The translations under genes were made by a program, and so were the position numbers. Shown piece after piece: positions 2,510 to 2,609 of a DNA stretch of 4,849 bases. Source of the stretch: a virus (Duplodnaviria > Heunggongvirae > Uroviricota > Caudoviricetes); the IMG/VR virus record IMGVR_UViG_2778261389_000001, positions 1 through 4,849 of that record. One strand, given 5' to 3'. The notes under the pieces are model-generated. The model had not been told where the DNA came from and made no database searches. It worked only from the letters and a program-made list of their open reading frames with translations. The stretch's first letter is position 1, and every line of letters starts with the position of its first letter.

Positions 2510-2536
2510 TAAATTAGTCATTGTTAATGCCGATAC
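2510..2536 (+). promoter_or_regulatory. Candidate orphan sigma-28-type promoter pointing away from fliC (possible remnant of a fliD-type promoter)
   Basis: Plus strand TAAATTAG - 11 nt - GCCGATAC; the -10 element matches 7/8, the -35 element 5/8, spacing exact. No CDS follows; a terminator lies about 45 nt downstream. Confidence 0.4.
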
Positions 2537-2581
2537 TCAATTCGCCCATAATAAATTTGAACACAAAATAAGCATGTTATT

Positions 2582-2609
2582 GCCCGCCCGTGCGGGCTTT
2601 TTTGTTTTT
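2582..2609 (+). terminator. Intrinsic terminator hairpin (GCCCGC-CCGT-GCGGGC) followed by TTTTTTGTTTTT; may also stop the convergent minus-strand operon
   Basis: Perfect 6-bp GC stem with 4-nt loop at 2582-2597 followed by a T-tract on the plus strand; it sits only 17 nt past the stop of the minus-strand UmuD'-like gene, where the minus-strand downstream sequence is only moderately U-rich. Confidence 0.7.

Follow-up and report, generated by a model that had tools for sequence, protein, structure and literature searches.

We analysed a virus-derived stretch of DNA of 4,849 nucleotides (nt) (IMG/VR record IMGVR_UViG_2778261389_000001), referred to below in its whole length as the window, which is contig NMFG01000096.1 of an Escherichia coli assembly, reversed. 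In this study, we propose that positions 2510-2608 on the plus strand are a free-standing small-RNA gene that depends on the flagellar sigma factor sigma-28 (FliA) and yields a functional RNA; judging from comparative sequence evidence, the probability of this reading is about 0.6. The underlying observation, a sigma-28 promoter followed by a terminator on the same strand, is confirmed and lies far beyond chance. That the two form a genuine sigma-28 transcription unit is highly probable. The unit would be one member of a family of cargo units carried by prophages of motile Enterobacteriaceae. Its parts are as follows.

2510-2517, plus strand: -35 element of the sigma-28 (FliA) type, TAAATTAG
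2518-2528, plus strand: promoter spacer tcattgttaat, 11 nt
2529-2536, plus strand: -10 element of the sigma-28 type, GCCGATAC
2544-2581, plus strand: predicted single-stranded, A/U-rich 5' body of the small RNA
2582-2597, plus strand: terminator hairpin GCCCGC-CCGT-GCGGGC, six G:C pairs and a 4-nt loop
2598-2609, plus strand: T-tract TTTTTTGTTTTT (T6 G T4-5), completing the intrinsic terminator

Promoter, terminator and predicted RNA

An earlier reading of the window, made from the sequence only, had pointed out the plus-strand motif TAAATTAG-N11-GCCGATAC at 2510-2536 with the exact sigma-28 spacing, and had asked how it would fare in a proper weight matrix. A FliA matrix was built from the 52 E. 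coli motifs found by chromatin immunoprecipitation (ChIP) sequencing and listed in Table 2 of Fitzgerald et al. 2014 (PMC4183435). A FliA-type promoter was defined as a TAAAGTTT-like -35 element and a GCCGATAA-like -10 element, 11 nt apart, with a score within the experimentally bound range. The motif at 2510-2536 has the elements, the exact 11-nt spacing and the score of such a class-3-type promoter. The 28-mer 2510-2537 reached 17.3 bits, which exceeds 73% of the 52 ChIP sites (leave-one-out) and equals the median of strongly bound FliA sites. In composition-matched random sequence this score was reached 0.00025-0.0015 times per kb per strand, an expectation of about 0.002-0.015 per window. 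The two top-scoring FliA positions on both strands of the window were the promoter of the unit (best on plus) and that of the neighbouring flagellin gene (best on minus, 20.7 bits). The core TAAA-N15-GCCGATA, with at most one mismatch, likewise occurred twice, in the unit and in the flagellin promoter (2279-2304, minus), compared with 0.04 times in shuffled sequence.

The strong hairpin and T-tract that the same reading had placed about 45 nt downstream were found at 2582-2608. The interval between the -10 element and the hairpin is about 45 nt and A/U-rich. A terminator scan called the hairpin on the plus strand only, where the GC-rich hairpin is followed by a U-tract on the transcribed strand, as in an intrinsic (Rho-independent) terminator; the opposite strand has an A-run ahead of the hairpin and no T-run after it. 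The statement that no open reading frame (ORF) with a ribosome-binding site follows the promoter also held. In 6 of the 9 related haplotypes described below, a 1-bp indel disrupts the 65-amino-acid (aa) ORF at 2424-2621, and no other reading frame, nor any ORF remnant, was conserved among the nine. The unit at 2510-2608 is without coding potential.

RNA polymerase carrying sigma-28 would read the class-3-type flagellar promoter and start at about 2544 (predicted range 2543-2545, 6-8 nt past the -10 element), and the intrinsic terminator would stop transcription at about 2600-2608. The product would be an RNA of 55-65 nt, A/U-rich and unstructured in its 5' region and ending in a GC hairpin with a U-tail. 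When the 62-nt predicted transcript was folded, it consisted of a 38-nt unstructured A/U-rich 5' part and the hairpin. The single-stranded A-rich body, the terminator and a U-tail of at least six residues fit the architecture of Hfq-type RNAs. This is the usual architecture of an Hfq-type base-pairing small RNA (sRNA) or of an sRNA sponge, and the RNA would probably act in trans. Since the promoter is of the sigma-28 type, the RNA would be made only while the host runs its late flagellar programme.

The conservation of the unit was then compared among close relatives. Neither 2229-2700 nor 2320-2615 had a match in 5,426 complete E. coli genomes, PLSDB plasmids or INPHARED phages, and exact 27-mer and 21-mer scans of the GTDB species representatives returned nothing except one chance match in a metagenome-assembled genome (MAG) of Bacteroidales. 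The spacer was present in draft E. coli genomes, IMG/VR contigs and gut metagenomes. Nine haplotypes, 93-100% identical, were recovered next to three or more different flagellin alleles, one of them with a FljA only 64% identical. The variable sites among the nine haplotypes were distributed as follows.

-35 element: 1 of 8
Promoter spacer: 3 of 11, length unchanged
-10 element: 0 of 8
Discriminator: 3 of 7
5' body of the RNA: 6 of 38 (2548-2568 invariant)
Hairpin and T-tract: 0 of 27
Non-coding spacer upstream of the promoter: 37 of 196 (19%)

Within the -35 element, TAAA was invariant in all nine haplotypes and position 8 alone varied (G/A); the FliA scores of all variants lay between 16.8 and 18.3 bits. 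Promoter and terminator were thus kept in all homologous loci.

A family of units in enterobacterial prophages

Homologues of FljA led to flagellin/fljA cassettes in prophages of Atlantibacter hermannii. The spacers of these cassettes showed no homology to the window beyond the flagellin promoter. On the strand opposite the flagellin gene they carried a FliA site of 16-18 bits, a body of 52-55 nt and the hairpin GCCCGC-(T/G)CCCGT-GCGGGC followed by T7. A family search was performed in IMG/VR with the hairpin alone, in three loop variants, and promoter information was not used. In total about 170 viral contigs were found, a count that is inflated by shared descent and corresponds to about 8-10 independent sequence types. 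The TCCCGT-loop hairpin occurred in 49 contigs; in 47 of these, the T-tract strand carried a FliA site scoring 17.4-26.3 bits at a distance of 41-52 nt upstream. The CCGT-loop hairpin, identical to that of the window, was found in 116 contigs and the GCCCGT-loop hairpin in 7; among the hairpin sites of these two kinds, 111 of 117 were preceded on the T-tract strand, at 44-55 nt, by a FliA site scoring 15 bits or more. In the control region on the other side of the hairpin, a FliA site was found in 0 of 116. The identical hairpin also stood without an upstream FliA site at 6 of the 117 sites (L126, L147, L162 and a few others) and at 1 of the 49 (L107); the last keeps the holin-side flank of class A, described below, and differs in its upstream sequence. 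Such sites may represent units whose promoter has been lost, or the terminator may have been used independently.

At least five sequence classes can be distinguished among the units, which were found in prophages of Escherichia, Atlantibacter, Leclercia and Enterobacter. Class A has an unstructured body, classes B and C carry a 5' stem-loop, and class D combines a 44-nt body, of the length found in the window, with a hairpin identical to the window's; the A. hermannii types and the window type are further types. Between classes the promoter spacers are unrelated in sequence and the RNA bodies differ. The units measure 94-110 bp including the promoter, with predicted RNAs of about 55-80 bases. 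In one class D copy (L174, IMG/VR), the 5' stem-loop segment is duplicated in tandem over 22 nt (TATTCAGCCTGAAGCTGATAAC occurring twice), which lengthens the body from 44 to 66 nt.

Membership in the family was defined as a FliA-type promoter 41-55 nt upstream of GCCCGC-(CCGT/TCCCGT/GCCCGT)-GCGGGC and at least six T, recognised by a model trained without the candidate. The window unit has this arrangement. A covariance model of 16 units, from which window-type sequences were excluded, matched window positions 2510-2603 with 45.3 bits (E = 1.9e-8); the runners-up in 130 kb reached at most 13.8 bits and were ordinary FliA promoters (motA, flgM, tar). The body of the window unit, AAAUUUGAACACAAAAUAAG..CAUGUUAUU, could be aligned to the class A body GAAAUUGAAAAAAAUAAAUAUCUGCAUUCGUU and also to class B bodies.

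Over 11 diverse units, positions tended to be better conserved the more information they hold in the E. coli FliA motif (Spearman 0.70, p = 3e-5). T1, A3, A4 and the CCG.TA core were invariant over all classes, and the promoter spacer was scrambled. This conservation pattern is evidence for selection on the predicted promoter. In the 5' helix of class B, 4 of 7 pairs were changed on both sides with pairing kept, slid registers collapsed, and the covariation score was reached by 5 of 500 shuffles.

Most family units are not near any flagellin gene. Class A units lie directly upstream of holin-endolysin genes, co-directional with them, in lambdoid prophages of the Enterobacter cloacae complex. 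In prophages of Leclercia and Atlantibacter, class B and C units follow closely on the last gene for a tail fibre or tail spike, and dinI/orf80 modules resembling that of the window are often nearby. Class D units follow a cI-like repressor and two moron ORFs, again co-directionally. As the settings and the orientation to the neighbours vary, the short transcript (promoter, RNA and terminator) is the constant feature, and the combination favours an RNA product over a purely positional role.

In the E. coli lineage of the window and in A. hermannii, the unit stands divergently upstream of a prophage-borne flagellin and fljA-like cassette. No divergent unit was found directly upstream of flagellin at the E. 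coli flk-like loci, at the Citrobacter sp. chromosome locus, in Citrobacter werkmanii or in the A. hermannii cassette behind a peptidase S11 gene; the locus of the latter carries a family unit elsewhere. Because several cassettes are without it, the unit is not obligatory in flagellin/fljA cassettes. These results strongly support the proposal of the sequence-only reading that the motif could give a small FliA-dependent RNA, as the predicted unit recurs in prophages that have no flagellin gene.

For class A, a Q-dependent late promoter with a 6S-type leader (pR'-tR') was also considered and was rejected as a general explanation. Conservation extends to the GCC of GCCGATA, which is dispensable for a sigma-70 -10-like pause element; classes other than A are far from Q and holin genes; and HK639 shares the 3' half of the hairpin only and has no FliA site.

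Known small RNAs and competing explanations

The units were compared with known RNAs. None of the 4,227 Rfam families, which include AsxR, AgvB, IsrK and STnc100, reached threshold for the window unit or for units of classes A-D. The best scores were 19.5 bits for AsxR (gathering threshold 63) and 16.9 bits for AgvB (threshold 56), and the other weak matches were short prophage Hfq sRNAs, matched by the shape of the terminator. It has been reported that MotR, FliX, FlgO and UhpU are sigma-28-dependent sRNAs of E. coli K-12 (Melamed et al. 2023, PMC10578931). These short Hfq-type RNAs depend on FliA promoters, end at intrinsic terminators and tune flagellar synthesis, and the same logic is proposed here. 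They derive from untranslated regions (UTRs) of core genes, whereas the present unit is free-standing, with its own promoter, as prophage or cassette cargo. Local alignments with MotR, FliX and FlgO, a comparison that did not include UhpU, matched only the terminator stem and the T-run.

AsxR, AgvB, Esr41 and PasA-D of pathogenic E. coli are alike in another respect, being RNAs of 50-90 nt with an unstructured 5' part and a terminator at moron positions of lambdoid prophages. PasA, PasC and PasD adjoin holin and lysozyme genes (10.64898/2026.05.13.724894), a niche shared by the class A units, and Esr41 affects fliC and motility. The preprint on the Pas RNAs describes no sigma-28 promoter for them (10.64898/2026.05.13.724894). 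Pas sRNAs are present in over 1,300 complete genomes, whereas among the 5,426 complete E. coli genomes the window type and class B are absent (0/5,426) and class D is present in 4, where it has no RNA annotation. The distinction of the units from Pas and Esr41 rests on their descriptions and not on a sequence comparison. A precedent for a FliA-wired transcription unit in a prophage is flxA of the Qin cryptic prophage of K-12, which is FliA-dependent (Table 2, PMC4183435), but flxA is a protein gene without sequence relation to the units and is not a short terminated RNA. No report of FliA-dependent prophage sRNAs was found in the literature open to search, and within that literature the family appears to be undescribed.

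Several points weigh against a functional RNA. FliA dependence, the RNA ends and RNA stability are predictions, and most intragenic FliA sites of K-12 give no detectable RNA or local RNA change (PMC4183435). The contig counts are, as already noted, inflated by shared descent. The window-type unit is without the 5' stem-loop of class B and without the YUGAA-type loop of classes B, C and D; its body aligns with a deletion across the stem-loop and in this respect resembles the unstructured class A. The variability of the window-type 5' body (6/38) is like that of the neighbouring spacer (37/196), and since the body is no more conserved than the spacer, a conserved seed is not demonstrated. The terminator stem gives no covariation support because it is invariant. 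The predicted RNA was no more complementary than shuffled RNAs (P = 0.74) to translation-initiation regions from 49 flagellar and chemotaxis genes of K-12 and from 5 cassette genes; the best ungapped helix, 9 bp at the motA start codon, was not above shuffles, and an RNAduplex search of targets gave long-loop artefacts only. The fljA-like gene of the window contig is cut by a copy of IS1, so the window cassette may be decaying.

The main rival is a cis-acting module, which we regard as unlikely. Here the sigma-28 promoter would fire into the terminator, transcription itself would be the function, and the RNA would be a by-product; the module would insulate the cargo from neighbouring prophage operons in a motile host, or interfere with them. 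In the window, the transcripts affected would be those of the SOS-controlled operon of the adjacent S24-peptidase gene, which reads towards the flagellin gene. In keeping with this, the window, class B and class C units converge on a neighbour gene, with the hairpin abutting its stop codon; conservation is highest in the hairpin and lowest in the RNA body; and no target complementarity was found. The orientation is not constant, however, as class A is co-directional upstream of the holin and class D co-directional downstream of the repressor operon, and the compensatory changes in the class B stem-loop, together with a conserved A-rich linker, speak for selection on the RNA. A mere coincidence is far less probable. 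It would make the motif a chance occurrence beside a terminator that really serves the convergent S24-peptidase gene, and it draws on the distance of 16 nt between the S24 stop codon and the start of the hairpin and on the occurrence of FliA-like motifs without detectable function in genomes (PMC4183435). Against it stand the low expectation per window of a score of at least 17.3 bits, a T-tract on the wrong strand for S24, and the pairing of hairpin and FliA site in about 160 contigs compared with 0/116 in the control, with spacers and bodies that differ between classes. In addition, homology to the S24/dinI modules of other prophages (Nissle 1917, SC476) ends exactly at the S24 stop codon, which assigns the hairpin to the cargo and not to S24.

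The sequence-only reading had offered a second possibility, that a fliD promoter was once deleted here and the motif is its fossil, which would mark the junction of the deletion. More broadly, a fliD-type or other class-3 promoter could have been captured with flagellin and fused by deletion to an unrelated terminator, without function. The fliD (fliDST) class-2/3 promoter is indeed also a divergent sigma-28 promoter upstream of flagellin, with about 46 nt from its -10 element to the downstream feature. Divergent sigma-28 units beside flagellin genes recur, since native fliC loci have the divergent FliA-dependent fliD promoter and in a flagellin/fljA cassette of Citrobacter freundii a divergent FliA promoter of 19.8 bits drives ORFs. 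The fossil was nevertheless not supported by alignment, profile search or conservation, and we consider it very unlikely. The unit has no homology to the fliD promoter, has a terminator where fliD would start, has no ORF and is at a non-native locus. No homology was found to the K-12 fliC-fliD spacer or any K-12 flagellar region: the alignment to the fliC-fliD intergenic region matched only the 5' end of the flagellin gene, and a profile (nhmmer) of 2337-2613 searched against the K-12 flg, flh/che/mot and fli regions and other flagellin cassettes gave only E > 3. Most family members are far from flagellin genes, and the promoter-terminator distance is held at 41-55 nt across classes with unrelated spacers. 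The terminator and the -10 element are invariant while the flanks vary, and a terminator with 0 variable sites of 27, next to a spacer that varies at 19%, is not fossil-like. No fliD is expected here, because the locus is a mobile flagellin/fljA cassette beside an S24-peptidase gene at a prophage end. Least probable of all is a gene for a very small protein in place of an RNA gene. An ATG at 2575 opens a 15-codon frame, and there is the 65-aa ORF at 2424-2621, but both ATGs are without a ribosome-binding site and both frames cross the terminator hairpin; the longer one is broken by the 1-bp indel described above, and the other classes share no ORF.

If the RNA is made, mobile elements would plug their own riboregulators into the late flagellar regulon, and alternative-flagellin (phase-variation-like) cassettes would travel with such a regulator. 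We tentatively suggest, at somewhat less than even odds, that the units are a dedicated family of tiny RNAs wired to the host flagellar sigma factor, through which a prophage senses flagellation and responds post-transcriptionally. If so, the responses may include tuning of flagellin or flagellar genes alongside the phage-borne flagellin/FljA switch, sponging of a host sRNA, or a change in susceptibility to flagellum-dependent phages or in immune recognition, and the window RNA would be the E. coli flagellin-cassette version of the system. Sigma-28-dependent sRNAs have been described recently, and all four in the study by Melamed et al. come from core-gene UTRs; knowledge of prophage sRNAs comes mainly from pathogenic E. 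coli, and a link to the flagellar sigma factor is absent from the searchable papers. Motility is tied to colonisation, immune detection and phage susceptibility, and a compact family of this kind is a handle on the interplay of prophages and motility. It is also an example of a promoter and terminator, probably functional, identified by comparative sequence alone.

The prophage end and its flagellin cassette

The remaining features of the window are as follows.

1-381: IS1 copy, cutting the fljA-like "phase-1 flagellin repressor" gene
382-512, minus strand: remnant of the fljA-like repressor gene
603-2228, minus strand: flagellin gene, 541 aa
2277-2304, minus strand: the flagellin gene's own sigma-28 promoter, TAAAGTTT-N11-GACGATAA, 20.7 bits
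2305-2613: non-coding spacer holding the sigma-28 unit
2614-3003, minus strand: S24 (HumD/UmuD-like) peptidase gene, convergent with the unit, its stop codon abutting the unit
3006-3248, minus strand: 80-aa ORF
about 3283-3302: LexA-box-like palindrome
3324-3566, plus strand: dinI
from 3962, minus strand: phage tail-fibre assembly and tail-fibre genes

The sequence-only reading had described the motif as pointing away from fliC. The divergent orientation is correct, the flagellin promoter and the unit lying about 205 bp apart, but the locus is not the native one of fliC: the gene is cargo of a prophage end, part of a flagellin and fljA-like cassette. Loci with the identical flagellin gene are adjoined by yecD-aspS, and AspS there is identical to that of E. 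coli K-12. The segment 2229-2327 is nearly invariant among all related cassettes. The next 180 bp between the two divergent sigma-28 promoters (2328-2509) are non-coding, conserved only at the general level of 80-93%, and without counterpart in the A. hermannii cassettes, whose spacers are unrelated and differ in length. No convincing flanking repeats were found that would mark the cassette as a discrete mobile unit. A remnant of hix/Hin-type inversion upstream of flagellin, an idea prompted by what we took to be a resemblance in TTCCAAAAG, was dropped; the recombinase-bearing E. coli locus (L002) is without such inverted repeats, and the flagellin promoter lies outside any such segment.

Relatives of the 541-aa flagellin at 90% identity or more were found in A. 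hermannii prophages and on the C. werkmanii chromosome (L119-L124), and the closest FljA homologues (84-94%) were all from A. hermannii. These relationships point to a transfer of the cassette between genera. The cassette does not match the flnA locus as published (a gene of 1,524 bp within the pgsA-yecA island), in a comparison that did not include the flk, fll and flm loci. The IS1 copy at 1-381 is 99.7% identical to IS1 of E. coli BKQWHE and leaves about 43 fljA-like codons (382-512), whereas sister contigs (L003, L004) carry an intact fljA-like gene of 176 aa. Intact fljA is also carried by two E. coli assemblies with the cassette, GCA_006230065.1 and GCA_023730115.1. In the strain of the window, flagellin from the cassette would be made in the absence of its partner repressor. 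At 565-590 on the minus strand, separating the flagellin stop codon from the start of the fljA-like gene, a strong hairpin, CCCCGCTTCGGTGGGG, is followed by T7 (TTTTTTT). It resembles an attenuator or terminator that would limit expression of the repressor, and it is also a possible origin of a 3'-UTR sRNA like K-12 FliX.

At 3270-3310, between dinI and the divergent orf80-S24 operon, a near-consensus LexA box, TACTGTATATCCATCCAGTA, is present, with CTGTATAAATACTGT overlapping beside it. Because of this box, the prophage-end module is probably SOS-induced and reads towards the flagellin cassette. In L003, beyond the cassette and adjoining yecD (8380-9100), a second SOS-type module in the opposite orientation consists of a 91-aa ORF, a dinI-like gene and the LexA-box-like TACTGTTTTTTTATACAG. 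Two prophage-end modules therefore bracket the cassette; they are possibly remnants of tandem integrations at the yecD-aspS site, also used by Nissle 1917.

The C. freundii cassette mentioned above lies on an element with MobA/RepL/H-NS-type proteins (L065-L068). Its divergent 19.8-bit FliA promoter, at about 3095-3122 on the minus strand, precedes protein genes at 2176-3034 (minus), whose products are 123 aa long with no Pfam match and 109 aa long with a weak ankyrin-repeat match. From their position, these ORFs would be sigma-28-controlled cargo proteins. In another prophage (L070), a class B unit lies about 100 bp from the Rfam prophage sRNA STnc100 (69 bits), at 711-909 (minus) and 1008 (plus), which suggests a small-RNA "hot spot" at that prophage end.

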